A stretch of 60,962 nt of DNA from Candidatus Omnitrophota bacterium (GCA_028713415.1 JAQTOI010000003.1:1-60962), one strand, 5' to 3'. Shown: positions 1-54,100, counted from the first letter of the stretch. The notes: generated from the sequence alone by a model not told the origin. A program made the numbers and translations.

Positions 1-140
1 ATAAGTATCCAGGCGCAGATGAGAGAATCGAAATAAAAGAAAAATCAAGCTCTCCTGTTTCCTCAAACTATCTGCCTTCGTACAGCCCGCTTATATTTTC
101 TGGAATAAACTTAAACGACATTCTATCTGGCACGGGAGCG

Positions 141-3100
141 TTGGCCGTAATAGCATTTCTAGGCTGGATAATAACCAAAAAGGCATATAGGTCTATCGCG
201 CAGGCGCGTAAATTCAAAACTCTGGTTAAGTCCATAGAACAAGGACCATCTTCGGCAGCCTATCAGAGAGAGTTGATACGATTGTTCCAATATTCCCTGA
301 GCCCCAAAGAAAGAAACCACGCAGAAGCGATGCGCATGTTTAAATACTTAGGCGAGTTATTAGAGAGCCAAGGCGCCAACTCTAAAACAGCGCAGTTTGT
401 ATTAGACTATTTTCTGTTCTATGGAAGGTTTGTTTCAATAAAGGCGTTCCATTTTACCAGCTGGCTGCTTAAAGCAATCAGTTATGATCTTAGAGCAGGA
501 ACAGATGTGCATGTCTTTTTCATATATCCAAGGAGCTGGGTGCTGCACCAGTTCATGTTAGCGGAAGCGCGGAAAATCAAAGAAACTTTAGAACGTAACG
601 GTAAACGCCGCGCAGCAAGATCTTATGATTTGGAGCACCGTGTGCATAAGCTTTATTTTACCAATGATATGGCCGCCTTAAATGCTTACCCTGAACATGG
701 AATAGAGCGTTTCAGCTACCAAGCGCAGTTAGCGTACCTATTTACTCAAGGTGTTTTTGGACACAAGAAAGTTATTTTTGTTGATGTTACTTCAAAGGAC
801 AGCCCTATACGTTATATCTCAAGGCTTATAACTGATAAAGAGTTAGTATCTCTGTTGTCTGGCGCGCAGCCGCCTTTTATTAATATTTCGCCGATTGAGA
901 AAGAAAGCGTTTCTCTACGCGTGTTGGTAAATCAAGGTAGTCCCGATTCCGCTCCGGACTTTGATTACTATATGCGCGGCGATAAAGAAAGCCGCCTGGC
1001 TGCGCAGGGGCGTTCCATTGCCGTGCTCTTAGGAGAAATCTTAGAGCCGCAGATGAGGCTTGAATTCGACCCAATAGAATTTGTCGGTGCCCAGGGCAGG
1101 TGGCAAGAAGGGCTTAAAGTGGTTCAGTCACCGCTTCATCGCTTAGCGGCTTTAAGCACTACCTTCGTTAACAGGGCAGTTCGCGAAAATATTCGAAATC
1201 TTCTTAAGATATCGTCTAGCCCTCTGAATACTCGCGCGGCAGCTATTTCTACGACGGCAGGGCAAAATAGCGTCCATCAGTTGTTGCGCCGCAGAGCAGA
1301 AAAGTTCCCCGATGCCTCATCATCTCCGTTAAATGATTTCTCAAATTCTATATCAGGTATTAATTTATTAGGCCTATATCCCGACATAGAAGGAGGCAAT
1401 ATCAATAAGCCTCACGTGGAAAGGGTCCATGCGTATGGGACACGCCTGTTGCTTGCCATGGATGTGCCGCAAGCTTTGCTGGATGCCTTTGGCCCCGCAG
1501 CCATCGGCCATGATCTTGGCGGCCTGCAGACATTTTCTATAGAACAGGTGGGCGAGGTTATAAAAAGGAATATCGCGCTGGTGGAAGAAGTGACAGGTTT
1601 GCCGATTGGCCAGATTCGCGCTGAATCTGCACGTAGATTCCCTAAAGATGGTTTATATTTCAAAAGGGTAGCTCATGACGCGGCAGGAAAAGTTTTTCTG
1701 GCACCTGCGCTTAAAGCGAGGCTTCCGGAAAGCCTGAAACAAGAAGAATTAGAAAACCAGCTTTATTCTGAAACCAGCCATGAAATATGCGGAGTATACC
1801 GCTTACGTGAACAAGAGGCCCCGGTAACGGCAGCTCAGGAATTCATTATTGCTCATCACTTTTTCTATCCCGAAAACTTTGAAGGCATGGATAAATTGGC
1901 CGCAACCAGTGGCCTTTCGGTTGCCGGAGTAAAGTTAGTACTGGATACTTTGATTTTTAGTGATGTTTTTGAGAACGGAAACAATGCCGATAGGCTGCGT
2001 ATTTTAAGAAGAAGCCCTAAAAATCCGGAAGGAATAAGATACCAGCCTTTACAAAGGACATTTGAGTTATTTGATCAGTTTTATGGCGATAAAGGCTTAA
2101 GCAGCTTGCCCAAACAGACCATGCTTGAAATATTAGCCGGATGGCATGGTGCTGCCCTTCGCGATGAAGTAATAGAAATTATTAAAGAGGGACGTCCGGA
2201 TACATCATCTGATGCTTTCCGGGAAGAAGAACTTGATTGGGTGCGGCAGCAATTAAGAAATTACGCATCCAGTCCTCTTGTTGATAACAGGAACGAGTAT
2301 CCTAGCGCTTTAGAAAACGCGACTATATTTTGCCGCGATTCAAAACACCTCATCGAAGGCTTACCTGATCCTTTTGGCCAGGGTGAGATTGTATATCCGG
2401 GATTTAGCAATTGGCTGCATGAGGTGCTTGAGGTAACATTTGCGGAGAAACTCTTGCAGTATAACCAGGGAGAACAAAATTTATTAACTATTAACGCGTT
2501 TCAGCAGTTAATGAATTATAGATATACTCATTGGATGGCGCTTATGGAAGCGCTCCAGAATGCCGAAAAATTCGGCTTAAGTAAATATGAAATATACGAA
2601 AATGCTTATCACTTTTTGCTAAGTGGTTTAACAATTTATTACCTTAGTCAAAAAGGAGGCCGCGGCAAGAGAAAAGGGAAAATGTTTGAGGCCATGGTTG
2701 ATGATGAGAGCAGATACTTCGTGCAAGAACAGGATAGAGGAGATCTTAAGCCAAGAGTTTTAGAAATTTTCCAAAGGCGCTTGCTTCCGGATCACAGAGA
2801 GGCTTTTGCTGAAGTCGAGCAATTTATGCAGCGCGCAAGCGTTTCAGTTGTTGGGGGTTCGTTGCCGGGTATGGAGAGGCAGGCTTCCATAGCAAGTAAA
2901 GAAATTATGAGTATGAGCCTCATTACTGGTTTGCATATGAGGATGAAGGAGAGAACCGTTACAAAGCAGAATTTTCCGGATGATAAACACGCATCTCAAG
3001 CCACAGGATCTAGCCGGAAAAAAGCGCAAAGCGCCAAGGCGCAAAATCAGCCGATGCTAAAGGAACCGAGGCATCCCGTTTTAGAGATTCTTAGAAAATT

Positions 3101-6100
3101 GCCTTTTAGCGAAAGCATGGGTATTCCATGGCGGCAATTTTATCTTAATATGCAGGCATTCGAAAGGTTATTTTGTTTAAAAACGGATACACTCTATGAT
3201 CTTATCGGAAAGATCATAGCTGGTTTTAATACAGGCATAGAAGAGACTCATCACGGCCTGGTTCAAGCGGAAATGAGTCAGATCATTGGGATGGTAGAAG
3301 ATTTCTTTAGAATAAAGAAGGCTTTAAAGTCTGCGAGGTTTTTCAATTACGGCCGCGATTCCGGAAGAGGCACAAGCCTTGTGTTTGCGCCCGCGAAAAT
3401 TTCCGCTTCGAAGCTGATTTCTTCCCCGCTTTCAGCTGATACATTGGTAGAATTCACCAGAGAACAAATAGGTATCTATTCCGGGCTTTTCCATTTGCCT
3501 TGGCAGGAATATAACCCGGTTTATCTCCCTGTACAGCCTAGCGCTGAATCTAACGGTAAACAAAGCATTATCAGTCCGCTTGCGATTAAAGAAGGCATGG
3601 CTCTATTGGCTCTTGACCAGAGGCAGCCGGTCATCAATCCTTTAGTTATCGCTGGTGACTACTTTGAAGCAACTCGGCTTGATCCAAGAAAAGTCATAGC
3701 GGCAATATTGCCTCATGAAATCGGGCACAGCATATTATGGACATTAGGCAGGTCAATAGAAGGCTTGGGGACAATTTGGGATATAGTATCTGCCGAGTTA
3801 GATCTGCCCGAATTGTTACCGCCGGAGCAGCAAGCATTCAGCGGTCTGGGATTGAGCGTTATTTTCGGTGCAAGAATCTTGCGCCCAAGTTATGAAATAA
3901 TAAGGATACAAGATGTTAATATTTTGTATTATCACATTCGTGAAACTATTTGTAACGCAATAGGATTGCAGCTAATACCCAGTCACATTTTTAAAGCAAA
4001 GGATGCCCATCCGGATTATTCTAATCACGACACTTTATACGCGTATGCGCTTGAATACTACGGAGAACTTTTAGAAAAGATAATCGCTGTAGCTGATAAT
4101 TTAAGCCTTACTTCGGACGCCGCAGAGGCCGTTCCGACGTTAGCAAATGCCTATAACCCTTTTGAGGATGTTATTCTTGAAGACGGTTCAGCTCTTTGGT
4201 CAAAGTATTACTACCTTAGATTAGCCGTTATGGAAGCTTTCTTTAAAGACGCGCAATCGCTTGAAGGTCTTAATCCCGCACTTCTTAAAGAAATCGGAGA
4301 GTTAATCCGCGGCATAGGGGCCGCTATCGACAGGCTGATAGCAGCGTGGCCTAATGCGCAGGCGCGAAGAGAGAAAAAACTTTATAATGATCTAGTAGCG
4401 GCATTTTCCGAAACTCACGCGAACGCGCGTAAAATTGTTCTCATTCAGCCCCGCGATAAACGTCTTAGTGCTTTTTCGGATAAAAGAGTTTCAAGCCCGC
4501 TCTCAAATGGCGAAGCAATAGCCTTCAATAACCCGACAAATAGTTCAAACCCAACGCGCGGGCCTCCGGCGGATAAGGCTCACGAATTATCCTCTTCAAA
4601 TTCTTCAGAGGAATTAACCTCTAGCCCCGTACAAAACGGCCTGGTTTATAATCCGGGTTTAGCGACGATAGGGGGCCTGGCTAAGGTCACCTGCGGCTTG
4701 GCGATATCTTTAGCTAAGGCCGGCTACAGAGTCATTATTTTTACTCCCGGATATAGCCATCCAAAATATAACTACGGCCAGGTGCCTTCAACGCTTATCA
4801 GCGATACCAGAGATGTTAGTGTAAGCTTAGGAAGCAAACAGGAGAGGCTCACCATAAAAAAATTAGATTTAGGCCTTATTAGCATAGTTACGCTCACCCA
4901 TCCTGTCATTTTTGAACGGCCCTATGTTGACGCATTAAGAACTGAACAAGCAGTGTTATTTTCAAAGGGTTCACTGGATGTTATGACACAGCTAGGCTTG
5001 GTGCCGGAAATAATTCACGCCCACGACTGGATGGCCGGTCTGGTGCCCGCATATTTAACCGATACTCCCAGATACCAAGAATATTTTACAAACGCCGCTT
5101 CGTTATTTACTATTCATAATGCCTTGCACCAAGGATGGGTCGGCATGGATAATGCTACAAGAATCAGTGTTTCGCGGAACATAATAGAATTTAAAGATTC
5201 CGTCAATCTGATGAAAGCAGGCATAGTTACTGCTGACGCTGTAAGCACTGTCAGCCCTCGCTATGCCCAGGAGATACAGACTTCTGATTACGGTTGCGGC
5301 TTAGAAGCATTTTTAAAAACCAGAGGGGTTGTCGGAATTAATAATGGCCTCTGCTTAGATTGTAACCCAAAGACCGCGGATATCGCGGCCAATTTCAGCG
5401 TTGACGACGGAATTGAGGCTGTATTGCCTGCGAAGTTAGAAAACATGCAGGCCATTCAGGAAAGATTTGGGTTAACAAAAGATAGAAATAAGTTTCTCGT
5501 CGTCTTGGCAGCACGCCTGGATAGGCAAAAAGCAATAGAACTTCTGGTTGAAGTTATCCCCGCGGTATTAGGCAAATACACAGACGCGCAATTCGTCATA
5601 GACGGCCCGCAGTTCGCTGATCCGGCCATAGCCCAATTGCATACAATAGCGCAGAGGCAGGATTTTCAGGGAAGATTTGCGTTCCGGCCGGAGCAGGAAT
5701 CCAATAATTACAGCGTCCTTGCGGGAGGAACGCTAAACTTAGCATGGAACGCGTGGGCGCCATTTGATTTAGTCGCGCGTGAAGCTTCGCTTTTGGGAAC
5801 TCCTTCAGCGCTTAGGCTCACAGGAGGTTTAGCTGAGTTTGTTCCCTATGACGAACAAACAGGCGAGGGTGAAGCCTTTGCCTCCGATGAGTATAGCGCA
5901 AAAGCACTTCTTGAGGCAATTGAACTTGCGAGAGATACCTATTACAACCGGCCTTCACACTGGAAACTAATAGTCGAGCGCGGCATGCGTAAAGATTTTA
6001 CCTGGAAAGAATCGACATGCCGATATGTAGAGCTTTTTACGCGGATGCAAAGAACTAAATTCGGCAGAGCTCTACCCATAAACGGCCTGATAACGATAGT

Positions 6101-9100
6101 TACTCCAGAAGCCTATCCTAATGTCCTGCAAATGGCGCTCGTTCGTTCCAGTTCCCCCTCATCAGCGGTTTTTGATTTGGCGACTGTCAGAAAAATTCTA
6201 GTGTATACGCAACCTGTGCTTCGAATCCAGGTGGTTAGCATCGAAGAAAAAGGTAAAACCATCAAAGCCGCAGTGCTTATTTCTAAAGACAACACCAGCG
6301 ACAGGCTCGTTTTTATATCTTCCAAAGACCGAGAGTTGGAAGTTGATAGAGATATGGGTGTTTGGCTGTATCTTACATTGGGTGCGTCTCAGGCAGTTTG
6401 TGTGCAGCCAGGCGCCTCAAACCGCATGGTAAAAAGAAGGCCGATTTTGTTACGAGTGGCCGCGCCTACTCAAATTGAAATAAAAGAAGAAGACGTTCTT
6501 CTGCAAAGTATTCCACAGAGCGGAGGCGTAATTGTTGCGCGGAACAAAACCAATCTTGGCCCAATAAATATAGAAAGGCGGCAATTTAATGTGGGCAATC
6601 GTACCTTTGAGGTTACGGGCATCTCAGAGGAGCCTTACTTGCTTTTTGTTGCTGATGAGGCTGGAAGGCTTCTGATGCTTGCCCCCCATGACATACGGCA
6701 AGCTAAAGAAGGAATATGGTTTGAATTTATCGGCTCAAGCAGCGGCCGGAAGACGGATAATCCCAGAGTGCAGATTTTTGCTCCAGGCCTTGATATCAGG
6801 CGTCCGGATATGAAAAAAGCCGGCCTAGGAGAGTCAAGTTCTGCTGTGATTGCTACGTATAGCGTTGATTTATTTCGGTTGCGGCAGCTTAACGGCCAAA
6901 GTACCTCTTCCGTGGCTGGTGGAAACTTTGGTTCTGCCGCAGCCGTTTCTTTTAATAAAAATCGTTTGGTTTCCCTCAACGCTTTAAGCTCGCCTGTTTC
7001 GCCGGATGCGAGTCAAGGCGGGCCTAGCGCAGCTACTATCCAAGCTACAAGCCGCAAGCTACAAGCCGCAGGCAGGGCAAATGGTATAAATAATATTAGC
7101 CCCGCACTTTCTACAAGAATAAATATCGAAGTAGCAGAAAGTGCGGGACAATTCGCAGACGGCTTACGCCTACGATTTACGTTCGCACGCCTGCGCAGCA
7201 GGCAGGCTGCCGTAAATCGTCTGCTCATTGGAGGTGTATCATGGTCCGTGGTTTTGAAAACCTTGAGATTATCAATTTCACTCATACCAACAGAGGCATT
7301 TTTATTTGGGCAACATATCCGGGATGGGCTTCAAAATACATTTTCTTTCTCCAGGGTAACGGGAACCTTAGAGGCAAAAACAGCGGCGGCGCATGGGGAG
7401 AGGTTTCAAGCACTGCCAGTAAAATTATCAGAGAGAAACTTTGCTCAACTATTTCAGACAGATTCCGGATATCATAATACAGATTTAGGCTTGGCTTCTT
7501 CTCCGGATGTTGCAAACGAAGAAAAAATCGAAAGCATCCTCGCGGAATATCTTCTTACCCCGGGTTTTTGGCCCGATCAGCAGAGAGTATTGGATCGATT
7601 AGAAAAAGAGGGGATTAATCCAGACTATTATGTACCCTTTTTGTCTAACATGGTGGAAAGCAGGAAAGAGGAAGCTGCCCAAGTTAAAGACGATATACCG
7701 CGTGAAAAATTTAGCGGAGAAACTGACAAGTTAGATAATTTAAATAGGCTTGCGGTATTTTACTACATACTTACCCTATTTGAAAATTCCGTCATTTCCG
7801 GGATATTATGGCGTTGGGCAACTTTTGCTTATATGGGCCCTGAAGAAATCTCCAGCCATAATATATTCTTGAGAACTTTGATGCAGGGATTAGAGACCGC
7901 CATAAAAACAGATCATTATCACGGAGATACTCAATATGCCGAAGGTTTCGCCTGGTATATTTATCATTTCTTAAGAGATTTCCCAAGCTGCTACATTGCT
8001 GAGTTTTTTGACTATTTAGTTGACCGTCACCCCGCTCATCACAATAGCCAGGCTCCGGCTGTCGCAGGCCAGGTTATTATGACTGATGAAGAACGCCGGA
8101 GCCTTAAGCAGGCTTTTAGAACTTCACGCGAAGCGGAAAGGGAATTTGAGGATGATAAATCTACAATTGATGCGGTTATTGAAATATGTTTAGGCGACCA
8201 TGTTGATGAGTCGCTTGACGTGCAGGAAGCAGCCAGAAAATTACGCGCGAGCGGTATTCCCCTTCAGGCAATAATCAGATGTTTACAGATGAGGCTTGGC
8301 ACAGGCCAAAAAATACCGCAATCAATGAACAGGCTTATGGCTTTGCTTCATCACGGGCCCGGCCAGGGCGCAAAAGCTCCTTCTGTCGTAAATGCAAATG
8401 ATTGCGGATTGGGAAGAACGCATCCTACTACGCCAAGGCTTCGTAGGACAAGGATGATCGCAGATGGCAAGACCGCGGCTGAACGCGGGGTAAAAACAGG
8501 CTCATCGCCTTTGGATGGAAAAGGTTCTTTGGGTGGGTTACGCGAGGTGATACATATAGTCAGGGCCTTAAACGTCTCGCTTAAAACTTCAAGAGACTGG
8601 AGGGCTCAACGAAAACAGATTCAAAAGCTGGGTAAATTAGCCGTCCCCTTTGCCGTCACAGCCTTAGTCCCCATACTTGAAAATCAGGATTTAGAGATAT
8701 TGCATCGCGATGTGGTAGAGGCAATAGGCAGGTTTGACGGAAATAATTTGAATAGAACCCGTTATGCTCAAGCCGCCCTCGCATTACATACGCTTATCTG
8801 GCGCAGGACTTATTTCGGCCTTCTTGAAATGGATGCGCTTGCCAAAGACGCTTTTGAAATTTTATGTAAACAGATAGCGCTTGCTATACCCGATATCCTG
8901 GACATAAGCCTTTATGTTCTGGAAAAGATTAATATTGTTTTTTACATGGCGAATGAAGCTGAATGCCGCTACTGCATGCAATATATGCTTGATGCGGCAA
9001 AGCTCGCGCTCGAAAGAAAAAAGTTTCGTGAGGTGCCGCTGCTTGTGACGGAAGTGAGACAAAAAGTCTGCGAACTTAAGGGTTATTTAGCGCGTACCGA

Positions 9101-42100: not shown

Positions 42101-45100
42101 CCGCAATTTTATGCCGCCCGGAAAAAGGTCGCATATTATGAGTAAAGGACTAAGCGCAAAAGACCGGGAAGAGTTTGTGCGGTTCAATGATGCATTATCT
42201 GATCTTTATCATAACGTTAGGCCATCCCTAATGCTGCATGCCGATTATCCTCATGCCTGCGGACATAGCGCGAGTGCAAGCGGTAAGGCGCTTGAACTTC
42301 ATGGTTTCACGGGTTGGATTCCTCACCAAACAAATATGCCACACGGAGATACCGTGCAGAATTATATAGAGCTTACTGTCGCAGACGTAAATCTTGTTTT
42401 GGATATGAATGCCGATACTTCAGAATGGCGTATAATCGATAGCGGGAAGAACGTATGGGAAATGCGCAATGTTGGTATCGTTGTCTTACCCAGGTGGGAA
42501 ATCAAAAATAATGCCGGAAGATACCGCATTTATCATCCTTATTCGGTCTATGAAACTTTAGCAAGAGTAAAACATGAAGATATTAAAATGCCGGACGGAA
42601 CTTTTATCCCTGCGAATATCGACGCTGAGGGTAATTGGTTGCCCGGATACGTAAATTTGTCTCCGGGTGTGACCGCGCCGCCGGCCGCCGAGGGTCCTGT
42701 CAGCTCGCCTGCCAACTCGAACCAAGAGCGGCTGTTGCAGGTAATACACAACGGCATTTACGTCTTACCTATATATTATATAAGGCTTGAAGGTAGAAGC
42801 AGAGACCCGGGAATAGGAAAATACACCCAGGTGGTGCCTTTCGTGAAGGAGCATGTTTTGCCTTTAGGTCATCGCGTAGTATTATTTTTGCCTTTTACCA
42901 TGCAGCTTCCCTGGTCGCAGTCACCCTATGATTCGGCTAATCGGCGATATTTTAATACTGATTATATTGACTGGGGGGTCGTCCCTGAGGCTCAAAAGTT
43001 TTTAGGGCAATTCGGTTATTACGGCCATTCGCAAAGAAGCATTGATTATAGAGCTTTACGTGAAAGAGAAACTAAAATAGGGATTGCAGCTTTTTTTGAG
43101 TTTAGAGAAAATAAAGATGGCCAGTATAGGCAGCGTTTTACCGATTTCAGGCAATTTGTCCGTGAAAGAGAAGAAAAAGAGAGAAATGGTGCTATGTGGG
43201 ATCTATGGGATTTAGAACATATCGGCAGATACCGCGCTTTCAATCATCTTTTGGGTAACCAGGAAGGCCTTTGGGTGCATGAGGGAATGGATTGCGGTTG
43301 CCAAGAGCATCATCCTGTTGTGGAAGCTTATAATGCCGATATTCAAAATAAAGATTTTCAATATGAGGATTTAATTGATTTTTATAAGTATCAACAGTGG
43401 ATAGCGACAACGCAGGCGTTAGCCATGGCGGAGGGTGTGACTCGTCTTGGAATGCTAAAAGGGGTCGATAATCAATTTTTCGACGCCAAAGGAGGGATTG
43501 ATTTCTGGCTATTACGTAAATATTATGAAACTTTTGAAAAATCTCCTGGGGTTCCGGGCACAGGTGATGAACCAGACCAGAGATGGATGTCTTTGGCTAT
43601 GCCGAATTGGCAAGCATTAGCCCAGGTTGGTTATGAGCCTTTTCTTGCGCCATATCATCATATTCTTGGGAATCTTAAAGCAAACGCCATAAGGGCTGAC
43701 GCCATACACTTTTTATTTGCTTGGATTCACTGGAAATGCGGGCCATACGCGGAGAATTTTCAATCTTGGCAATCACCGGGCCAGGGCCTCTTATATAGGC
43801 TTGATGAAGTTTTTGATTCTTACGGAACATTCAGGATCGGTGAGCTTCTTGGGCCAGGGCCTGATTATGTTGCGCGCATGGGATTTAATAATTATAAGTG
43901 GCATTTTTACCGGATATGGAAGTGGAATAATCCTATAGATTTTAATCCCGGCTGGAATATAAAAGCTTTAGAGCTTCACGACGGTACGCGTTTTTGTGTC
44001 GATCCCGAATATCGTTTTAATCCTTATGCCAGCCACAGCGAATTGCGCTATCGCCTGGAAGGGCCGGGAGGTTTTAAGGAATTGATGAGCAGGTTTTTCT
44101 TAGGCAGCCCGGATATTCCTATGATTTATGCCGGCGATGAAGTCCTTGACCAATGGTGGCTAAATAATCCATGGTTGCCTACGGAAATGATGGAGAGAAA
44201 CTGGGCGACGAGGATGCCCATAGAAGGAGACGATGATTTTGACTCGCGAGTTGCAAACGAAATGTTTACGCACCGCAGGTGGATAGGAGAACAACTTGTA
44301 GCCAGAAATCCGGCAAGCCGGATTTCTTCTTCGCCGGCCGCAGGTGAAAACCGCTCTATGCCCGTGGATTCGTTACGCACCCTTTTCTGGCCGATGAATG
44401 CATTGCGCCGGCGCGGAGATTTCTTAAGCGGCGATATCAGGGGCAAAGAACTACTTGCCGAAATGGCGGCAAAAAAAGGTTACAACAGCCTGCTTGATTT
44501 TCCGCTAGCTCAAACCGGACATTGGCTGGCAAGCCCTTATGACGCAATCAGCGCGTTTGCCTACGACGCTATCAAAGGCTTACCGTTAGATGAAATGATG
44601 ACTGAAGATGACCTATCGCTAGCTCTTGAAGAGGCGTTTTACGATTATTTGCTGAATACCTGTATGAAGTTGCGTGGCATACCGATTCAATCAAAGGAAG
44701 ATTTCTACCGGCGCATAGAATACGCTCAAAAGGCTACAAGCGTTCCTCATACCTTTGTTTACCTGGTGCGACGGGCGGTACTCTGGCATTTGTACAATAA
44801 AGAAAATATATACCAACGCCTGCAAGATAACGACGCTACACTACGCGGCCTCACCGATTACATAAACGCCGAAAAGGATTGGCTGGAAGGCTATAGCACT
44901 TTCCATGTTTTATATGATCATTATAACGGCGCCTGGTGGCGTGACTGGCCGAAAGGCTTACGTGACCGCAATCCTCGGGCTATTGACGAATTCATGAAGG
45001 CTGATAATGGAAACAATAACCGCAGGAAAGTTTTTTATGAGTGGCTCCAGTGGAGGTATGAGTTGCGCTTGAGCCAGGCTGATAAACTTTTTAAACGTGT

Positions 45101-48100
45101 GGGAATTACTATCATTGCAGATATGGCTTTATATCCGGCAGATAATAGCGCAGATGTTTGGTGGAACCAGGGGCTCTTTTTGCCTGAATGGGCCGCTGGC
45201 GCTCCTATTGATGAAGCTTGCCTCAAAGAACAGAACTGGGGGTTACCTCCTTATGCCTGGATAAGAAAGTTTGCTTCGGTCTTACGTTACGAACTTGCCA
45301 AGATCAGGCGCCAGCTATCGCATGCCCGGGGCTTACGTATCGACCACATTTGGGGCCTTTCCCAGGAACATCTTATTTACAGGGATGTATCGCAGGGTAA
45401 GCAATCAGGTTTTGTTCCGCGCAGGGTCCAGGATGCCATCCACCAGCAGGCAGCTATTATCAGCGCGTTTTGCGAGGAAGCACGCAAACATAAGGCATTT
45501 CTTGTCGGTGAGAATATCGGCATACGTAATCCGGCCATCGTCGATGCGCTCTATCAGCATTGTAGCGACGAAGGTAATTTGCTTCTTACTAATGTCACCG
45601 GCTGGCGGCCTTCACGCGTTAATAACCGCGATATTATCGTATATCCGTATGATTTTACTTCTGCAGCCTCCGGTGATACCCCGATGCGTTATGCTGAGCG
45701 TATGCGCTTAAGTGATTACCAAGATGCTTGGTGGGGCCAGACCGCGGCATTTCTTGCCGCGCGGGGCGTCTATGTTGATAGGAACAGGCATACCTTTAGG
45801 CAAATCGAAGACTTAGTTGAAGCTTGCATTACCGGTATCACACCGCGCGGTATACTTCCCTTTACCTGCACGACAGTCGCGCGTTTCCTGGGCCTTAGAA
45901 ATTTTATGTTTAATATTCCCGGAGAACAGACTCCGCATCTCTGGTGCGGTAGGCCGGAAGTTTTTCTTGAAGACCTCATCAGCCGTATTGAACAAGAGGA
46001 CGCTAAGTTTAAAGAAGTACTTACTGCTGCGCGAGCCGGCACAATAGAAGTTGAACATTTCGCCAGCGTACACGGCGTAGCATCAAAAGCCCTTCGGGTC
46101 AAATTCGACAATCAACTCTATGGTATTATTTACAATGATAGCGATAGGGAAGAGGAGGGCAGAGTAGACTTCTATCTGGATCAGTTGGGATTCGATTGGT
46201 ATAAGCCCTTTGCCTTACGTGATGAAATTAGCAGACAACTCTTTGTCTTTGTTCCCGGTAAAAACTTACATGATTTCGGTATCATGTACTATAAGCTTGC
46301 CCCGCACCAGGCGCATATTTTCCGCCTTACGCATACCAATCGGGATTCTTTGTGCGTTGATTTGCCGGTTATTGAAGCGCCGGCACCAAGAATTCTTTTT
46401 GCCGGAGATTCACATGCCCGCGGATTAAGAGGCCTTAGTGAAAAACGCATCTGGGAGCCGCTAGCCTGGGGTTATCGTGGTCCGCTGTTAGAGTTATTGC
46501 GCGCAAATGGTTTTGATTATAGCCCGCACGGCCCATTTAATGAGCCTGACAATCCAAATGTCTATGATCGCGCGCACCTGGGCTGGGATGGTATTTATAC
46601 GCATACGGTATATCCCAACCACCCTACTGCGTCGTACGGTTTATACGAACTTATGCAATTGCACCTTGAAAATTCTATGCCACTCCCTAATCCAGAGCAT
46701 TCCGCTGTTTTAATAGATATCGGAACAAATGATGTTTCCGATCTGAATGTAAATATTGCTGAGTCTGTTCATTACCTTGAAGAGACAATTAAATTTATTC
46801 ATGCGCACGATGCGTCAATTGACGTTTATGTAACTCATTTATTGCGCCGTGGGGACAGCATCAGGTCAGAAGAATTTAACAGCGCGGTTGCGGAGATGAT
46901 AGAGCGCCTTAAGAGCGAGCAGCCCGGTAAACAAAACATCTATCCGGTTGACATGCGCAAATTGCGCCAAGACCCCGATTGGCAAACGAAATTTTTTGCA
47001 GATGATTGGCATTATAACGATGAAGGCTTCGATGCCGCGGCTAAAATTCAGTGCGAGGCAATCCTTGATGTGATTAACCCGATGTGGCGGCCTGTTGCGT
47101 CATCTCATGCCAGTTCCCCTATAACCTTTAAAGACTTGGATTTGAGCACGCAAGAGGTCATTGGTGAAGGCGGGGTCGGCCGCATCTATAAAATTAATGG
47201 CGGCAACCATCCTTACGCGGTAAAAGTATACGGCGCGACAGAAGAGGGTCTGGCTGGTTTACCAAAACAGGCAATTGAATTGCCGAAATATCTTTTACGT
47301 ATATCCCGATACGCCAGGCATCTGCCGGAAAATAAATTTATGCCTCACTATTATGAAGAGGGCTATTGCACCCTTGTTAAAGGCCCTAAAGGCGATGAGG
47401 TCGCGCCGGCAGGCAGATTCTTTGGCGCAAAATATCCATTCGTACTTATGGATTATATGCCGGGAACCAGCCTTAAGAAACTGTTAAAAGGCGGCAACAA
47501 AGATATAAATATCGCTGATAATTGGCAGCACAAGATTGTTGCGGCTTTAAGTATTGCAGAGGCGCTTACTCAGTTTCACGCCGCAAAGCTTATCGTAAAG
47601 GAATTAAAACCAAGCCATATATTGCTCAATGTACAAGACAGAAGGCTTAAGGCGTGCCTTATTGATAATGACGGTGTTGTGCCTTATCCTTATAATTGGC
47701 AGGAAAATCCGTGGGGATTGCCGGACATAGTCAGGCTTATTCGTACGCCGGGTTACTGCGAAAGCGTCGAACCTTTTACGTCTGCTTTAAGCAGAGAAAA
47801 AATGCTCAAATCTGCAGCAACGTTTTTTACCCCTCAATGGGACATTTACAGTTTCGGGGTAGTTCTTGTTTGTTTATGCGGCTCAATCGATTTTAGAAAC
47901 CATATAGAAGCTTCGAATTGGGAAAAAGCAGCACGCAGGATAAAACATGAAATTGCACAAATAGCTGCTCAGCCTGATAAAGAAGACCTGATGATGGTAA
48001 AAGCTTGTTTTCAGGTGGCGGCAAAGTGCATTTGTCAGAGAAGCGATCGTTTTGGGAGCATGGCTTTTGTGTCAGCCGCGTTAAGAGAATGTTTAAAGAT

Positions 48101-51100
48101 GGCCAAAAACGTGCTTCCTGGAGATTCACCGTGCGCATCAGGCCCTGTTAGTTCATCTGCTTCAGCCGGCAAACCGCAAAGTGTGCAATTTTACGGCTGC
48201 GGCACGCCTGAACGCATTCTATCAGCTAAAACATTGCCCAGCCCTTCGGAGTACCTCAGGGCGCCGACACATGGTGGCTTCAGCCCTCTGGCTTGGTTCG
48301 ACTACGCTCACCACGAGTCGGCAAGGGCGTCGTTGGACTCCAGCCCACCAATGGCAAATGGCAAAGGGCGAATGGCTGATAGCAATTCAAAGACGTCGCC
48401 GCAACGCGGCTCCGGCCCCGGAAGTATCCGGGACGTCGCAAATAGCTCCAGCCCCGCATCTGGCTCTGAGCAAAAAGCAAAAGAACAGCTCATCGTCCAG
48501 CTAAAAGAAACGCTTTTGCAGGTTCTTACCGCAGAATCAATAGCTCGGTTTAACGAAGATGATTTAATCGGTTTGGCGCTTTTTACCTTGGAGGACTTGC
48601 CGAGAGCGCAAAGGATAGAGCTTATCGGCGCGGCATTAGAAGCTCACAGTATGGACCGTCAAAATGCGGAAAATATCCTCATTGCCTTGTGTGACGCAAA
48701 TTCTTGTGGAAGGATAACGCCTCTTTTTGTAGCTGCAGGTATGCCTGAAGTTTACGAAAGTTCATGGCCGACGCAGAGAGAGGACACCTGGATAGGAGAA
48801 GAAGCACGGGACGTAATTAGGATGGCAATGCTTAATGTTTTTACTCAAATATTTAATTATTTTCATATTTATCCGGATAATCAAAAAACAGTTGTTGATG
48901 TCGGAGCCCGGCGCGGATGGCTTGAGAAATTATTGGGCCAGGAATGGCAAAAGGTTATAACCTTGTTTGACAAAAATGCTTTTTATCTTCTCGAAGCCCG
49001 TGAACAAAGCCTAGGAAAGAATTATATAACCGGCAGTGTTTATGAGTTGGCAAAATACTTACGCGATATAAATTTAATTCTTTCTCTGGATACATTTGAT
49101 ACCTTTTTGGATTTAAGCTGCGCCGCAGCGCAGTGCGCGGCAGCGCTTTCTCCGGCTGGATTAATTATTGTTGTCAACGGCCCGCCAGTTCAGATTGAGC
49201 CGCTTGTCCAAGAGTTGGCTGAACAGGGAATAGTTTATTCTCCTTATTGCGTCGAATTTTTTGATGCGGAAGAGAAGCGCCTTGCTGCTGAAGAAGCTTA
49301 TCATCAATGGAAAAATCTTCCGGAAGATACCCCCTCAGATTTAGCACGGAGTGTCTTTAGCCAATTTTTAGATATCCGCGATAGGTTAGCATTCGATAAA
49401 GATGAGTATTTTCAGGCTAAATTGATACGCCTGTTAAAAATGGAAGGCTTAGAAATCCTGCTTCCTTCGAAAGCTGCACAAAGAGGAATAATGGGAAAAT
49501 ATATAGGCGCAAAAGAAGAAAGGCACAGAAAAGTTTCGCCGACGGCAAATTGCTTTACCTTTTACAAAGGCAGCGGGCACTTGGGATTTGACCCTAAGAT
49601 TCCCTTGGGCAAGGTTGTTGAAGCGGTTGGCTTAAGAGTGGTTATGGCAAGAAAACCTGAACCGTCTCAGCCAAGCAGGAGGCCTTTAAGCTCAAGCTCC
49701 CCGTCAGTAAATATGACTAATCAAATACTCCAGCCCAACTTTCCTGCGGAGTTCGCCGGCCGCGTAGGTTATCAGATACTGGTTGACCGTTTTGCTAATG
49801 GTGATAGCTCAAATGACCCAACCGTTCTTGACACAATGGACGATATTGGGGGCTGGCACACCAGAGATTGGAATAAGCCTTGGTATGAGTATGACCAATG
49901 GGAGATGGACTGGGCAAAAGCAAACCGGAAACACCCCTTAGAGATTATTTGGAAACGCCACTACGGAGGGGATTTACAGGGCGTATTGGACCGGTTGGGT
50001 TACTTAGCAGAATTAGGTATCGGTTTTATTTATTTTAATCCGCTTTTTTGGGCGCCTTCACATCATAAATATGATTGCCGTTCTTTCCATCACATTGACC
50101 CCACCTTTGGCCCTGACCCCAGGGGTGATAAAGCCTTGATGTTAGAGGAAAACCCGGTTGTTCCTGCTACTTGGAAATGGACCAGAGCTGATAAATTATT
50201 TTTAGATGTTATTGAAGCAGCGCATTCAAGAGGAATTTTGGTAGTATTGGACGGTGTGTTTAATCATACTAGCCGGTATTCCTTTGCCTTCGCAGATATT
50301 TTGAGCAATAAACAGGATTCGCGGTATGCCAGCTGGTATCAAATTACGCATTGGGATAGCGAACTGGCCGATGGTTTTGACTATTGGAAATGTCTTGGTG
50401 ACAAATCTTTGCCCGAAGTCAGGCGTGACGGGGATTCTTTAGACTCCGCTTTTAAAGAATATGTGTTTAATAGTATTACGCGTTGGATGCAGCCGGGAGT
50501 CGTCGCCGGACGCAAGCGCCAAGGCGTTGACGGCTGGCGGATTGATACAGCAGATCGCCTTCCGCATGTATTCCTTAAAGAATTACACGCAAAAGTAAAG
50601 TCATTAAATCCTGGCGCGATAATTATCGGAGAAGTCTTGGCTGTTAGCCCGGAGTATCTTCGAGGAGACGAATGTGATTCCTTAACAAACTATTCTTGGC
50701 TTTTTGCCCTGCAGGAGTTTTTCATCAACCAGGAGAGCCGCATCTCACCCAGTCAATTTGCAGGGCTTATGCGCGATTTGTTTACCGCCTATCCTTCACA
50801 AGTACAAGATTATATGTTGAACTTCTTAGGTTGCCACGATACAGAACGTATTATCAGTGCGATTCGCAATCCAGACATGGCTCGACGCGATTGCGGTAAA
50901 CATTACAACAATTCAAAAGTTCTTCATAACCCCAGTTATGACATTGGGCCTGCAAGCGAGCGGGATATTAAAATCCAGCAGTTACTTGTTTTATATCAAA
51001 TGACCGCACCCGGTATGCCGGTAATTTATTATGGAGATGAACTGGGCTTACCCGGAGCAAATGACCCTTGCTGCCGCGTTCCCATGCCCTGGCATATTGT

Positions 51101-54100
51101 TGATAGAGGCGCAAATCCATTGCACAGTTTCTATAAAAAGATGATTGCTATGCGTAACCAATCGCTTGCCTTGCAACGCGGGACATATGAAGTAGTGCGC
51201 ATTGATGATGAGCGGCAGCTCTTGGCATATCGCCGTAGTTACGAAGACGAAAATGTTTTTGTAGTGATAAATAATAGCGATAGCGAACGGATTGTTTCAT
51301 TACCGCTCAATTCAATATCTGGTATCCAACCTATTGTTAATCTCGTTGATGATAGGCGATACCAGGTGCAGGATGAAAGAGTAACTCTTACTTTAGCTGA
51401 CCGCAGCGGAGCTATTTTATCTGCCCTAGGCTGTCCAGCTAAAAGCTCATCCCCCTCGGCGCGAGATTTATCAATGGCAGTACATTTTTACGGCCGCGGC
51501 ACGCCTGAACGCATTCTATCAGCTAAAACATTGTCCAGCCCTCAGGTAGCCCCCCGCGCCCCGCCGCAGGAAAACGCCGTACCTAATCGTTCTTTTTTCA
51601 ATTCCTTAACTTGTGCATCTTCCAGTTCCTTGGAAGGGGCGCTTCGCAATCAAACTAACCGGCCGCAATGGCGCAATCAAGTTAAAAGAATCATACAGAT
51701 TACTGGCTGGACCGGTACGCTTATAAATTTGGCGATTACCCTTCTTTTCCTACCACAGATTTTACCTCTCTACATACCCTTAGCATTGGAAGGTTACGCG
51801 TTAGCTCTATATTTCTTCTGGCTGAGCCGGTATAAAGATTCCCGTTTATTCCAGATGGCGATGGCTGTTATCGGCCTTGCGTTTTTCTTTGGAGTTTTTC
51901 ATGTGGCATTACCGTGGGTTATTCCTGCCGTCAGAAACAGCGCAGAACGCACATTTTCTGAAGTCGCATTGATTATCGCGGCAAGATTTGCTCTTATGCT
52001 CCCTGCCATTTTTGCTTCCAAATATTTATGTACAAAATATTTTAAGTTTTTAACACCCAACCCGAAAGCTAATTTTGAATTCAAGTGGAAAGAGGAGCTA
52101 TGGAAATCATTTAAATGGGCGTTTGTCGGCGGAATAATCGCGGGTTATTACATTTCCTATGTAGTATACAATTTTCTTTCGGTAAATATCGATATCGGAT
52201 ATACAAGTTATATCCCGTTTTTGGAGGGAAATCTTTCCATATTGGCATTGAAGGCCGCCTTTGACTTGGGTCTGGCTACTATTTTCGTGCATCATGTCCT
52301 TACGTTAGTGGTGGGCCCGGCTTTTTGCGAAGAGATGAATCTTTTAAAGGAATGGGGTAAGGGCAGTGGCAGCTTAAAGAAGTACATTAAAAAACAATAC
52401 ACTATAGCGTCCCCTTTGAGTTTCTTATTCTGGTATCCGGCTGTTTTTCTTCTTTGGTATCTTTTCCCGCATTTATCACTGGGCATGATACTTACGCAGG
52501 CGGCATTTACCGTTGTTTGGACCGTAATTTATGAACGGATTGTGCAATTCTGGAAGAATGGAGATAATTTTGTAGATGTCGAATACAAAGAAAAAGCTTT
52601 AGGCAAGCAAAGAGCTGCTTCTTCACCTTCGGAAGATTTGTCCGGCGACAAGCTTGGGGCAAGTCTGGAAGCTGCCGCTTTATCATCGAAATTTAGCGGC
52701 ATAAATTTTTCAGAAAAAAAGTTCAGACTTATTGATAAAGTAATGTTAGAGATTGACGCAGAGATCCGGCAGGAGCATCCTGAAAAACTCCTGGCAGCAA
52801 ATCTCGATGTTCAATATCAAAGAACACCGTCGCTATACGCTGTTGCAGTAATTGAGGAATTAGTTAAAAGAAAATTGATGGCTTCGCACAATAAGTTCGG
52901 CGATGTGGGCGCAGGCACGGGCGCAATGCTTATCTTGGTCGTTGCTTTGACCCAGGCCGGGGAGGCAATAGGCATAGAACCTGATGGCTACCTGCGCCAA
53001 AAAGGCCGGGAGGCAATATTACGCCTTCAGAAAATGGGCGTTATCGATGAATCCCGCATAAGGTGGATTCCAAAGGGCTGGGAGGATTCGACCGATATAT
53101 TAGGCCAGCTCGATGCCGCATATTTATATTCTCCGGTTCAAGCCCCGGATCACTGGGCGATTGACGCCAAAGTGATACGTAGTTATATGAGAACAAATGC
53201 ATATCTGCGTGTTGCCGGTGTCGGACAAAGCGGTCCGGGCGCACTTAATAATTTTTCTTGCCTCGCACAAACTTCAGCTATCGGTTCGGAGGCCCTCACC
53301 AAAGCCCACCGCGTAGGCGAGTTTTGGTTAGGCCGCCAAGCGCCGGGCGCCAGCTCGCCAAATCATAATGTGCCTCTTTCAGACGGCATGGAAGTTTTTA
53401 GAAAAAGGGTGCAGCAGGCAACAAGAAGAAACGCGGAAGGGGAGTGTGGGCAACAAGAGAAGATAGATTCTTTGATTATGCAATTGCTTACTGGCAGCGA
53501 GAAACAACACTATGATGCGCTTGGGGAGTTAGTTGCAATCAGCGGATCTTCGCGTAAGCCTTTTTTCGGGCTGGGTGATACAAGCCTTAGCTTTAAAGTT
53601 CGCAAATCCCTGGGTGAAGCGTTAGGCAGCTTGGTAGGTAAAAGAATGATTCAGGTCTGCAGAAGAATTTTTAATGACGAGCGCATAGCTGGTGAAATCC
53701 GCCAAACTGCAGCAAGGTATCTGTTTAGCCTTGGTAAACGCGTTAAACCAAGAATGATGCGCACCAGCTTCCCGGTAGCAGCCAGGTCCAGCCGTTATAA
53801 TATAGTATGCGTATGTAAAGGTAATCTTTACCGGGGTCCCTTTTTGGAATTTATGATACGCGATTACCTAAAAAGAAGGAAGTGGGGAAATTATTTTTTA
53901 GTTCGTTCTGCCGGAACTTCGGCGTGGATAAATAGTGTAGATCGTGAATATGAACTAAAAAAGCAAGGGGAAATACAGCTTAGCCTCTATCGGCAGGTAA
54001 GCGTGACGGAATCGATGCAACAATTTTATAGTGGTATTTCTCCTCGCAGGTATTTGTCTGAGCGTATGTATAAAACTGCAGATGTAATATTAACAGTTAG

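Follow-up and report, generated by a model that had tools for sequence, protein, structure and literature searches.

Predicted membrane segments among cytosolic-type enzymes in a giant multi-enzyme gene of a Candidatus Omnitrophota bacterium

When one reading frame encodes a long series of cytosolic-type enzymes and also carries hydrophobic stretches at widely separated places, one has to ask on which side of the membrane each part of its product could lie. Here, we consider this question for 60,962 nt of DNA from a Candidatus Omnitrophota bacterium (GCA_028713415.1, JAQTOI010000003.1:1-60962; hereafter, the window), where an earlier note had pointed to three such places, seen a topology paradox in them, and taken this as indirect support for the cutting of the chain into separate proteins. 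Hydropathy was calculated as 19-residue Kyte-Doolittle (KD) means and dG values with the Hessa 2005 scale; our transmembrane (TM) calls rest on these two scans, plus an AF2 model for the third place. The KD scan finds all three places where they had been reported, namely, two lone helices and a block of eight (Table 1), and by the same means they are TM-like.

Table 1. Coordinates of the features discussed, counted from the first letter of the window
Feature	Position (nt)	Strand	Residues (aa)	Basis or remark
Giant ORF fragment	3..60893	+		5' side runs off contig; TAA stop 60891-60893
SSP junction ahead of lone helix 1	48..56	+	16-18	Motif count
Lone helix 1 (ILSGTGALAVIAFLGWIIT), then KKAYRSIAQARKFK	120..176	+	40-58	KD 1.97, dG 0.05
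Marginal hydrophobic stretch	27195..27251	+	9065-9083	KD 2.15, dG 1.01
Marginal stretch ending repeated module ('PILYIGKQNRSISSP')	31638..31694	+	10546-10564	dG 2.49
SSP junction ahead of lone helix 2	35643..35651	+	11881-11883	Motif count
Lone helix 2 (ASSAAVIGLSGIAIVLSVYLLI), then KINNRVQER	35748..35813	+	11916-11937	KD 2.50, dG -1.36
SSP-bounded membrane cassette	51534..52628	+	SSP 17178 to SSP 17540	SSP positions
Predicted eight-helix membrane core	51708..52550	+	17236-17516	AF2 model, alignment, loop charges
'DVGAGTGAM' stretch downstream of block	52896..52976	+		KD 1.76
T-run (TTT 60880-60882) with dependent stop codon	60880..60893	+		TTTT in overlapping contig C110

Frame +3 is open at its 5' end and runs for 20,296 codons, with in-frame Pfam domains all along the chain. 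These include GT5/GT1 starch synthase, SAM methyltransferases, MBL/beta-CASP, HAD, CBM48+GH13, GH77, GDSL, alpha-amylase, LMWPc, a GlgB-like unit, and Pkinase (32.7 bits vs a cut-off of 31.7). Over the window and the other giant-ORF contigs, many distinct enzyme families are present (GT5, methyltransferases, and HAD among them) and none is dominant. The contig that precedes the window, C33, encodes a radical SAM enzyme, an NAD epimerase, and a methyltransferase. As the earlier note had said, cofactor-dependent enzymes of normally cytosolic type lie on either side of the hydrophobic segments by Pfam, and this holds for each lone helix. With the longer T-run of the overlapping contig, the frame stays open for 2,124 codons more and reaches another Ser-Ser-Pro (SSP) motif. 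Further contigs of this 2.17-Mb genome are open over their entire length in one frame, and the giant multi-enzyme gene is scattered across many of its contigs. We read the window as the 3' portion of a giant 'multi-enzyme' gene of the Omnitrophota type, assembled from whole-protein-sized cassettes that are split by SSP junctions. None of the RNA runs searched contains the window stretch. RpoB of this genome is 45-51% identical to that of MAGs of mixed phyla, with one Omnitrophota MAG in the best three; the giant ORFs of the genome are compatible with Omnitrophota.

Giant proteins of this kind have been described. The Archaeovorin type is represented by a 39,678-aa protein of Velamenicoccus archaeovorus, and its accessible descriptions concede that topology predictions are unreliable and propose cleavage into multiple products (West-Roberts 2023, 10.1101/2023.11.21.568195; Seymour 2023, PMC10066038). 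As far as these descriptions go, our chain shares with Archaeovorins a length of tens of thousands of residues, scattered TM helices, and domains such as GT5 'glycogen synthase', methyltransferase, and HAD, among other enzymes, but its TM helices are sparser (10 in 20,296 aa vs 42 in 39,678 aa) and its cassettes meet at SSP, a motif that the accessible text does not mention for Archaeovorins. Most full-length Archaeovorins are reported there to have a SecA_DEAD-like domain and a C39 or S8 peptidase. Pfam scans listed none of the three, neither in the window at E <= 1e-3 nor, at E <= 1e-5 and 1e-4, in another 13 contigs with giant ORFs, a result to be read with an incompletely assembled gene and reportedly divergent domains in mind.

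A 'multi-enzyme metabolic cluster' class of very long Omnitrophota proteins has also been set out (Nielsen & Lui 2026, bioRxiv 10.64898/2026.06.07.730766), and the accessible part of that report lists starch synthase, GT1, radical SAM, methyltransferases, and HAD on one TM-bearing polypeptide, as here. It debates whether the content faces the cytoplasm (a 'TM-only' class) or lies outside, and it gives DeepTMHMM helix counts; per-cluster parity, junction motifs, and an eight-helix cassette are not described in that part. Several features of such giant proteins are found in our gene (more than 10,000 codons, many enzyme Pfams, and scattered TM helices by KD/dG and AF2), which is an additional case of the giant multi-enzyme kind. 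The TM helices, doubtful topology, and cleavage hypothesis for giant Omnitrophota proteins are thus, in the accessible parts of these reports, already published.

The SSP motif occurs 62 times in the window chain against 4.8 expected, and 0 of the 62 copies fall inside Pfam envelopes, which make up 16% of the chain (P = 1.8e-5). The units bounded by SSP are sized like free enzymes (510, 605, 222, 584, and 830 aa). At the first junction, the DNA (nt 18-66) is common to other contigs of the source metagenome, with loose ends at 18 and 66. The eight-helix block lies between two SSP junctions; in five homologues, the membrane cassette is flanked by another enriched motif, R[SA]ExR (6-10 copies vs 0.2-0.4 expected per homologue, n = 5, with 0 inside the block), and two more relatives have the motifs [GA]RTS and [GA]RMA in place of SSP. 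A short motif that borders protein-sized units, which one would look for in a polyprotein, is therefore present here as SSP and in other lineages as other motifs. SSP could also be a simple linker or a modification site.

Judged from its sequence, the block is a conserved, predicted membrane domain of no known family that is almost exclusive to very long ORFs. Searches of Pfam, NCBIfam, PDB sequences, Foldseek, and Atlas found no family for it, and only 7 relatives were found in 1.84 billion proteins, six of them in proteins of 1,883-5,410 aa; the seventh, a 248-aa fragment, begins within helix 2. A search of 300 other genomes from the class gave four solid matches, all within open frames 1,209-9,419 aa long. 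The block is clearly above chance, since 11 of the 18 windows with a summed dG <= 4 fall in its 1.4% of the chain, and the AF2 model is helical throughout (pLDDT 79.3, pTM 0.75). The proposed inner loops have 4/2/4/6/4 lysines and arginines and the outer loops 0/2/0/0, and the inner/outer charge pattern is identical in all eight aligned sequences. On this basis, eight spans with cytoplasmic N- and C-termini are the most likely layout. The block may instead have seven, as the AF2 secondary-structure string gives block residues 22-77 as a single uninterrupted helix, but the loop charges agree far worse with that layout. In homologue P0007, a charged insert (SHGDRLKD) separates helices 1 and 2; in homologue P0006, a Pkinase domain stops 28 aa upstream of the block. 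As an anchor, the block probably keeps both neighbouring segments inside the cell. With an even number of spans and an N-in/C-in orientation by loop charges, it adds nothing to the topology paradox.

Four polar residues are conserved in the block, E17265 (EGW), H17299 (FHV), D17421 (AFD), and E17443, and with these embedded in the membrane, the cassette is a candidate intramembrane protease that would cut nearby junctions, an idea that we consider very unlikely. It shares with the CPBP/Rce1-like proteases (PF02517) about eight helices and a conserved acidic residue that starts a helix, with F-x-x-H one helix on. Structural comparison with VIA-align returned, among other rows, Rce1 (4cad_C; Z 5.0, rmsd 6.0, 187 aligned residues) and SpdC (6u0o_A; Z 4.5), Z values that are in the noise range for helical bundles. 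Foldseek with the block gave no match at E <= 1e-3, neither PF02517 nor any other Pfam matched the eight block members at E <= 10, and an hhalign comparison with 11 aligned CPBP proteins of relatives had a probability of 0.4% (E 0.15). Of the CPBP motifs EExxxR, FxxxH, and HxxxN, the first and last are missing, and only the E...FH spacing recalls motifs 1 and 2. By sequence, the block does not match PF02517, of which genuine domains are found in the giant frames of two relatives.

The two lone helices require more care. The first hydrophobic stretch of the earlier note, 'GALAVIAFLGWII', falls within helix 1, and the second, 'AAVIGLSGIAIVLSVYLLI', corresponds to aa 11919-11937 (nt 35757-35813; KD 2.50) of helix 2, which has 22 uncharged residues in succession. 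As TM candidates, helix 2 is strong and helix 1 marginal. Hydrophobicity by itself leaves both within chance: three windows reach dG <= 0.5 compared with 1.5 +/- 1.5 in 100 shuffles, and of 200 shuffles, 30% had a lowest window that reached the -1.36 of helix 2 and 65% had one that reached the 0.05 of helix 1. Windows with KD >= 1.6 also mark soluble cores, such as the GT5 N-terminus (aa 1553) and Methyltransf_23 (aa 16373). One should likewise be wary of the marginal stretches in Table 1: aa 9065-9083, 559 aa from the previous SSP and with flanks more acidic than basic, is probably no membrane span, and aa 10546-10564 is probably an element of a soluble core, with a paralogous module ending 'PLLYIGKQSREISSP' at aa 8075. 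The 'DVGAGTGAM' stretch, which we take to resemble a Rossmann SAM-binding loop and not a membrane span, has a weak DOT1 match (E 0.23) as its sole Pfam hit.

It is their position past SSP junctions and the charges of their flanks that argue that the lone helices are probably non-random. Helix 1 begins 24 aa past an SSP, and the lowest-dG window of helix 2 (aa 11919) begins 38 aa past one; each heads a cassette of about 400 residues. In the giant fragments of this genome, four of the five isolated helices lie 15-60 aa past an SSP (background 11.7%, P = 9e-4, for a distance window picked after the data had been seen), and those that cluster sit 22-38 aa past the junction. In the five homologues, there is one isolated helix and it is not at that position, and two further relatives have none. 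No relatives of the lone-helix modules were detected among metagenome contigs, among proteins of 756-2,155 aa, or in 84 further genomes from the order, two of which belong to the genus itself. In both helices, the C-terminal flank exceeds the N-terminal one in K+R over 15 residues (0 before and 6 after helix 1; 2 before and 4 after helix 2), so both favour N-out/C-in. The Sec/Tat signal-peptide motifs that the earlier note would have looked for after SSP borders are absent at these helices, which are 19-22 residues long, have N-flank K/R counts of 0 and 2, and carry their basic cluster C-terminal of the helix, whereas a signal peptide would have a basic n-region, a short h-region, and an AxA site, or a twin-arginine motif. 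On C33, a 'RQFLGRK'-type flank with no twin arginine stands ahead of a two-helix hairpin.

The chance levels above suit an uncut, wholly cytoplasmic chain held only by even-span tethers (the block and the hairpins), in which the lone helices would be buried or interfacial, or else decaying topogenic relics of fused-in genes. Such a chain would keep every cofactor-dependent enzyme inside and need no protease, and the C33 copy of helix 1 is indeed weakened by A46S and W55R (dG 3.06 vs 0.05). Against this, the isolated helices are grouped just past junctions, and contigs from two runs (X1 and X2) match the window letters at helix 1 and so retain its hydrophobic version; selection should remove such an exposed helix from a cytoplasmic megaprotein, and to our knowledge, few soluble proteins have a 22-residue uncharged stretch of KD 2.50 followed by a basic cluster. 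We regard this reading as unlikely.

An uncut chain might instead alternate sides, with helix 1 exporting aa 59-11915 (about 1.3 MDa) and helix 2 acting as a stop-transfer before the block, and the exported enzymes acting either extracellularly or on or within prey cells. The parity is correct (the C33 hairpin leaves the chain inside, helix 1 takes it out, and helix 2 brings it back in, in agreement with the N-in start of the block), but the charges around helix 1 are the reverse of those of a start-transfer signal, and the exported part would contain GT5 starch synthase, SAM methyltransferase, MBL/beta-CASP, and HAD units, which require cytoplasmic substrates. In the accessible parts of the reports, predictions put much giant-protein content outside (West-Roberts 2023; Nielsen & Lui 2026) and a predatory lifestyle is suggested for the phylum (Seymour 2023, PMC10066038), but West-Roberts et al. 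call some of the predicted localisations 'highly unlikely'. We consider alternation quite unlikely. The whole-protein size of the cassettes and the lineage-specific short motifs at their borders would also suit cassettes made separately, through internal initiation or ribosomal skipping at the junctions, with no single polypeptide at all. This appears highly improbable, because no Met occurs in the stretch from the SSP to either lone helix and we know of no mechanism of that sort in bacteria. Moreover, giant ORFs were reported to have no catalytic RNA and single mRNAs were assumed, in the accessible text of Seymour 2023 (PMC10066038).

The explanation that we prefer, at a little short of an even chance, is a cassette gene in which the block is an even-span anchor, the lone helices are N-out/C-in anchors, and the chain is cut near the junctions. 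The hydrophobic stretches would then be the membrane parts of three cassettes. The block cassette (aa 17179-17540) would hold the chain at the cytoplasmic membrane, on its inner face, as would the two-helix hairpins on sister contigs C33 and C51, and the enzymes on either side of the block would stay in the cytoplasm alongside their cofactors. Each lone helix, with a polar tail of 24-38 residues before it and a basic cluster after it, looks like a signal anchor of the N-out/C-in type. In an uncut chain, two consecutive spans cannot share this orientation, so the paradox of the earlier note, which does not hold for the block (N-in/C-in in 8/8 sequences), is reduced to the two lone helices; likewise, the even number of spans that would undo it is found, by loop charges, in the block and not in the lone helices. 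An N-out/C-in anchor inserts only with a free, short N-tail, and the working model that we find most likely is thus a cut at the junctions or close to them. After the cut that we infer, each helix-bearing cassette would be a bitopic membrane protein whose body lies in the cytoplasm, and the remaining cassettes would be soluble cytoplasmic enzymes. The lone helices, past SSP and probably N-out/C-in, are compatible with such cutting and to this extent lend processing the indirect support that had been claimed; the cut itself we hold as a tentative and somewhat doubtful proposal. No protease domain was found by Pfam in or beside the window, and contig C91 has the sole protease-family match, a weak one to Peptidase_M48 (31.3 bits).

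Flavivirus polyproteins are chains of complete proteins; internal helices, acting as signals or stop-transfers, decide on which side each part lies, and proteases cut at short, specific border motifs. Our chain shares with viral polyproteins complete proteins in one chain, internal TM segments, and short border motifs, but it is encoded on a bacterial chromosome, it is 10-20 times longer, its junction motif varies by lineage, and its cutting is only hypothetical. Should the likeness extend to function, which we consider doubtful, the gene would encode a true bacterial polyprotein in which SSP, R[SA]ExR, [GA]RTS, and [GA]RMA would be the cutting sites and membrane cassettes, such as the two N-anchored modules and the eight-helix unit, would be released and inserted separately.

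The window is the entire contig C3 of a 160-contig, 2.17-Mb genome, and because Pfam domains lie in frame along its full length, the frame that fills it codes for protein. End-to-end open frames occur on at least 10 further contigs of the genome, and frames of at least 1,500 aa total about 87,000 residues; the giant gene or genes have therefore been fragmented by assembly. The window belongs to a giant gene of an already known kind. An RpoB scan meant to place the genome in a phylum matched MAGs from several phyla at 45-51% identity; of the best three, one is an Omnitrophota MAG. No RNA sequencing run containing this stretch was found among the runs listed.

Features of the window chain and of two other contigs of the same genome
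Feature	Position	Remarks
Giant ORF	nt 3-60893	frame +3; open across 20,296 codons; runs off the 5' end
Helix 1 (lone)	aa 40-58
GT5/GT1 starch synthase	aa about 1553-1975	Pfam
SAM methyltransferase	aa 4259-4367	Pfam
MBL/beta-CASP/RMMBL	aa 4478-4889	Pfam
HAD	aa 5091-5274	Pfam
Marginal stretch between the helices	aa 9065-9083
Marginal stretch between the helices	aa 10546-10564	end of a repeated soluble module
Helix 2 (lone)	aa 11916-11937
CBM48 + GH13	aa 13261-13482	Pfam
GH77	aa 14800-15183	Pfam
Alpha-amylase + its C-domain	aa 16734-17138	Pfam
Eight-helix block	aa 17236-17516	predicted N-in/C-in
LMWPc	aa 17934-17994	Pfam
GlgB-like unit	aa 19020-19638	Pfam
GDSL, weak Pkinase, Methyltransf_23		window chain; Pfam
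Candidate hairpin pair	C33 aa 208/242	basic N-flank, acidic or neutral loop, both ends inside
Candidate hairpin pair	C51 aa 3911/3945	basic N-flank, acidic or neutral loop, both ends inside

At the 5' side, nt 1-257 of the window overlap the right end of contig C33 (L008 19453-19709) over 257 nt at 98.8%. C33 is probably directly upstream, an adjacency that is not certain because the junction DNA at nt 18-66, where the contig graph branches, recurs elsewhere in the source metagenome. All three mismatches in the overlap are non-synonymous (Y23S, A46S and W55R), and A46S and W55R weaken helix 1 in the C33 copy. Logan contigs of two sequencing runs of one study (X1 and X2) have C at nt 70 and keep the window's letters at the A46S and W55R sites (nt 138 and 165); a third run, X3, gave no such contig. 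At the 3' side, the stop codon (within nt 60880-60893) hinges on a T-run at nt 60880-60882, which reads TTT in the window and TTTT in contig C110 (L021, reverse strand; 207-nt overlap, 99.5%). With four T, the window frame is open through all 2,124 C110 codons and meets another Ser-Ser-Pro (SSP) motif 25 codons on. Probably the giant ORF continues past the window; otherwise the difference would be one between strains or would reflect a frameshift.

Giant frames on C33, C51 and C13 (L008, L013 and L009) also hold radical SAM domains, which adjoin NAD epimerases, UDPGP, LpxC, APH, CheB and CheR-like units, so the content of the giant gene or genes goes well beyond glycogen enzymes. A giant ORF has its head on C13 (L009, L010, minus strand), with an N stretch near its start. 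Its first 3,330 aa are without SSP and carry two polytopic TM clusters (aa about 1303-1551 and 2084-2530), and enzyme cassettes with SSP junctions follow downstream.

SSP occurs 62 times in the window chain, against 4.8 expected, and none of the 62 copies falls inside a Pfam envelope, the envelopes covering 16% of the chain (P = 1.8e-5). The units that it bounds have the sizes of free enzymes, namely 510 aa for GT5, 605 for MBL/beta-CASP, 222 for HAD, 584 for the amylase and 830 for GlgB.

The earlier note had pointed to three widely separated hydrophobic places, and all three were recovered at its coordinates. TM-like windows should nevertheless be expected by chance here, because the chain is some 20 kaa long and rich in L, A, I, V and F. 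Helix 1 is TM-like with a Kyte-Doolittle mean over 19 residues of 1.97; helix 2, with 22 uncharged residues, reaches 2.50. Against shuffled chains, a crude null, the most hydrophobic window equalled the helix 2 value in 30% and the helix 1 value in 65% of 200 shuffles. On the summed insertion scale of Hessa 2005, windows with dG <= 0.5 numbered three against 1.5 +/- 1.5 in the shuffles. The block is beyond chance, since a span of 290 residues takes in 11 of the chain's 18 windows at summed dG <= 4.

The block sits between SSP copies at aa 17178 and aa 17540, and so forms one cassette. When 1.84 billion representative proteins were scanned in full with HMMER, seven relatives emerged (E 2e-59 to 3e-6), six of them proteins of 1,883-5,410 aa; the seventh (248 aa) starts within helix 2 of the block and is a fragment. 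Searching 300 other genomes of the class in six frames with the profile yielded four solid matches, whose open frames measure 1,209 to 9,419 aa, as well as two weak matches; a single-protein query of the genome contigs database gave none. An AlphaFold2 model from the eight-sequence alignment is all-helical (pLDDT 79.3, pTM 0.75). The block has no Pfam match at E <= 10 and none in NCBIfam, by Foldseek against PDB, by a wide VIA-align search (best Z 6.1, to an MxB stalk) or in the ESM Atlas (best score 0.81 against a level of 0.9); a PDB sequence profile search gave one match, to adiponectin, by chance. Kinship with CPBP/Rce1 proteases was considered and rejected (hhalign probability 0.4%); by VIA, too, their likeness to the block does not rise above noise (Z 5.0 and 4.5), and the kinship is kept as no more than a lead. 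True CPBP/Rce1-like domains (PF02517) do occur in relatives' genomes, inside a 17,786-aa open frame (G231:C5:161707-161973, E 1e-20) and a 4,704-aa one (G342:C19:11215-11532, E 6e-6), and in most relatives a separate gene product of about 320 aa carries such a domain as well.

Loop charges, taken as decisive for topology, fit eight spans for the block with both termini inside: K+R per loop is 4/2/4/6/4 for the proposed inner loops and 0/2/0/0 for the outer, a pattern that is the same in all eight sequences. The AlphaFold2 secondary-structure string draws block residues 22-77 as one helix, which would mean seven spans. A hairpin, and hence eight spans, is favoured over seven by the length of the apolar stretch at the first helices (46 residues), by the prolines clustered at its centre, and by a charged insert, SHGDRLKD, that the homologue P0007 carries exactly at that centre. 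In P0006, another homologue, 28 residues separate the end of a protein kinase domain from the block downstream of it, and in the window the block is followed by a DVGAGTG stretch that we take to be Rossmann-type; both flanks therefore look cytoplasmic. With eight spans, the block is predicted to anchor the chain and to leave its neighbours on the same side of the membrane.

The lone helices behave differently. Within 15-residue flanks, helix 1 has no K/R before it and six after, and helix 2 has two before and four after, so that from flank charges both are predicted to prefer N-out/C-in. The 11,860 residues that separate them contain no convincing span. Since consecutive spans in a single chain must have opposite orientations, these orientation signals cannot both hold in an uncut chain. 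The stretch between the helices carries GT5, methyltransferase, beta-CASP and HAD; kinase, methyltransferase and GH77 follow helix 2; and radical SAM, NAD epimerase and methyltransferase precede helix 1 on C33. Every side assignment of an uncut chain leaves some cofactor-dependent enzymes outside. The earlier note had seen a topology paradox in membrane segments set among cytosolic-type enzymes, and had counted the block as part of it while naming even spans per block, among other points, as evidence against it. The observation holds, and its interpretation is right in part. The block, by its charges an even-span N-in/C-in anchor, drops out of the paradox and so supplies part of that counter-evidence. 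The two lone helices (one strong, one marginal) stay in it and are the true remaining puzzle.

Both helices start shortly after a junction, 24 residues past SSP for helix 1 and 38 for helix 2. In the genome's SSP-bearing giant fragments, four of five strictly isolated helices lie 15-60 residues after SSP (background 11.7%, P = 9e-4), or four of eight at a looser threshold (P = 9e-3), with a distance window that was picked after seeing the data. Elsewhere, five homologues offered one isolated helix and no match to this junction-then-helix pattern, and two relatives contain no isolated helix. The lone-helix modules have no relative among proteins of 756-2,155 aa, no match in metagenome contigs, and in the order's 84 other genomes just two partial matches at chance level (30-78 residues, E about 5e-4); the N-terminal module has no match in two same-genus genomes. 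An AlphaFold2 model of the helix-1 module made without an alignment was uninformative (pLDDT 36.8). A C-terminal sorting signal of the LPXTG or PEP-CTERM type was rejected: motif and helix are 24-38 aa apart, the helix does not stand at the end of the chain, and no more than 2 of 62 SSP copies have a helix after them. Internal translation starts were likewise rejected, there being no Met from the junction to either helix.

Proposed cutting at the junctions would be the best resolution of the lone-helix puzzle. Five of the six long block homologues (P0001-P0004 and P0006) are enriched in another short motif, R[SA]ExR, with 6-10 copies against 0.2-0.4 expected; it flanks the block and has no copy within it. 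The window chain has one copy against 0.9 expected. Which short motif stands on either side of this membrane cassette thus depends on the lineage. Giant frames of two relatives (G032:C30, L108; G227:C2, L110-L111) hold [GA]RTS(T), in nine copies, and [GA]RMA, in seven. We infer that motifs differing by lineage fit recognition sites more than passive linkers. Pfam found no protease domain in the window; across the giant fragments that were scanned, the sole match to a protease family is a weak Peptidase_M48 (HtpX/Ste24-type) on contig C91 (L016, aa 1981-2017, 31.3 bits), covering the HExxH part alone.

The question of one protein or many is posed by the papers describing Omnitrophota giant genes themselves. 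West-Roberts et al. 2023 (10.1101/2023.11.21.568195) report that giant proteins of Omnitrophota carry GT5 and methyltransferase domains along with many TM regions, call some localisations ones that 'seem highly unlikely', and propose cleavage without cleavage points. Seymour et al. 2023 (PMC10066038) describe a 39,678-aa V. archaeovorus protein with 42 predicted TM helices. Nielsen & Lui 2026 (10.64898/2026.06.07.730766) apply DeepTMHMM to 916 long proteins; they set up a 'multi-enzyme metabolic cluster' class and discuss on which side of the membrane, cytoplasmic or outer, its content lies. Our search of the giant-protein literature, not aimed at these terms, found no paper on SSP junctions or the eight-helix cassette.

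What is at stake is whether the product of Omnitrophota giant genes is a single membrane protein of megadalton size or a set of many ordinary ones. The window makes this testable, with 62 candidate borders, two conflicting helices and a conserved eight-helix cassette predicted to be N-in/C-in. If the chain is cut, these bacteria would use a virus-like polyprotein strategy for an entire metabolic pathway; if it is not, the lone helices would mark a failure of present topology rules for very long chains.
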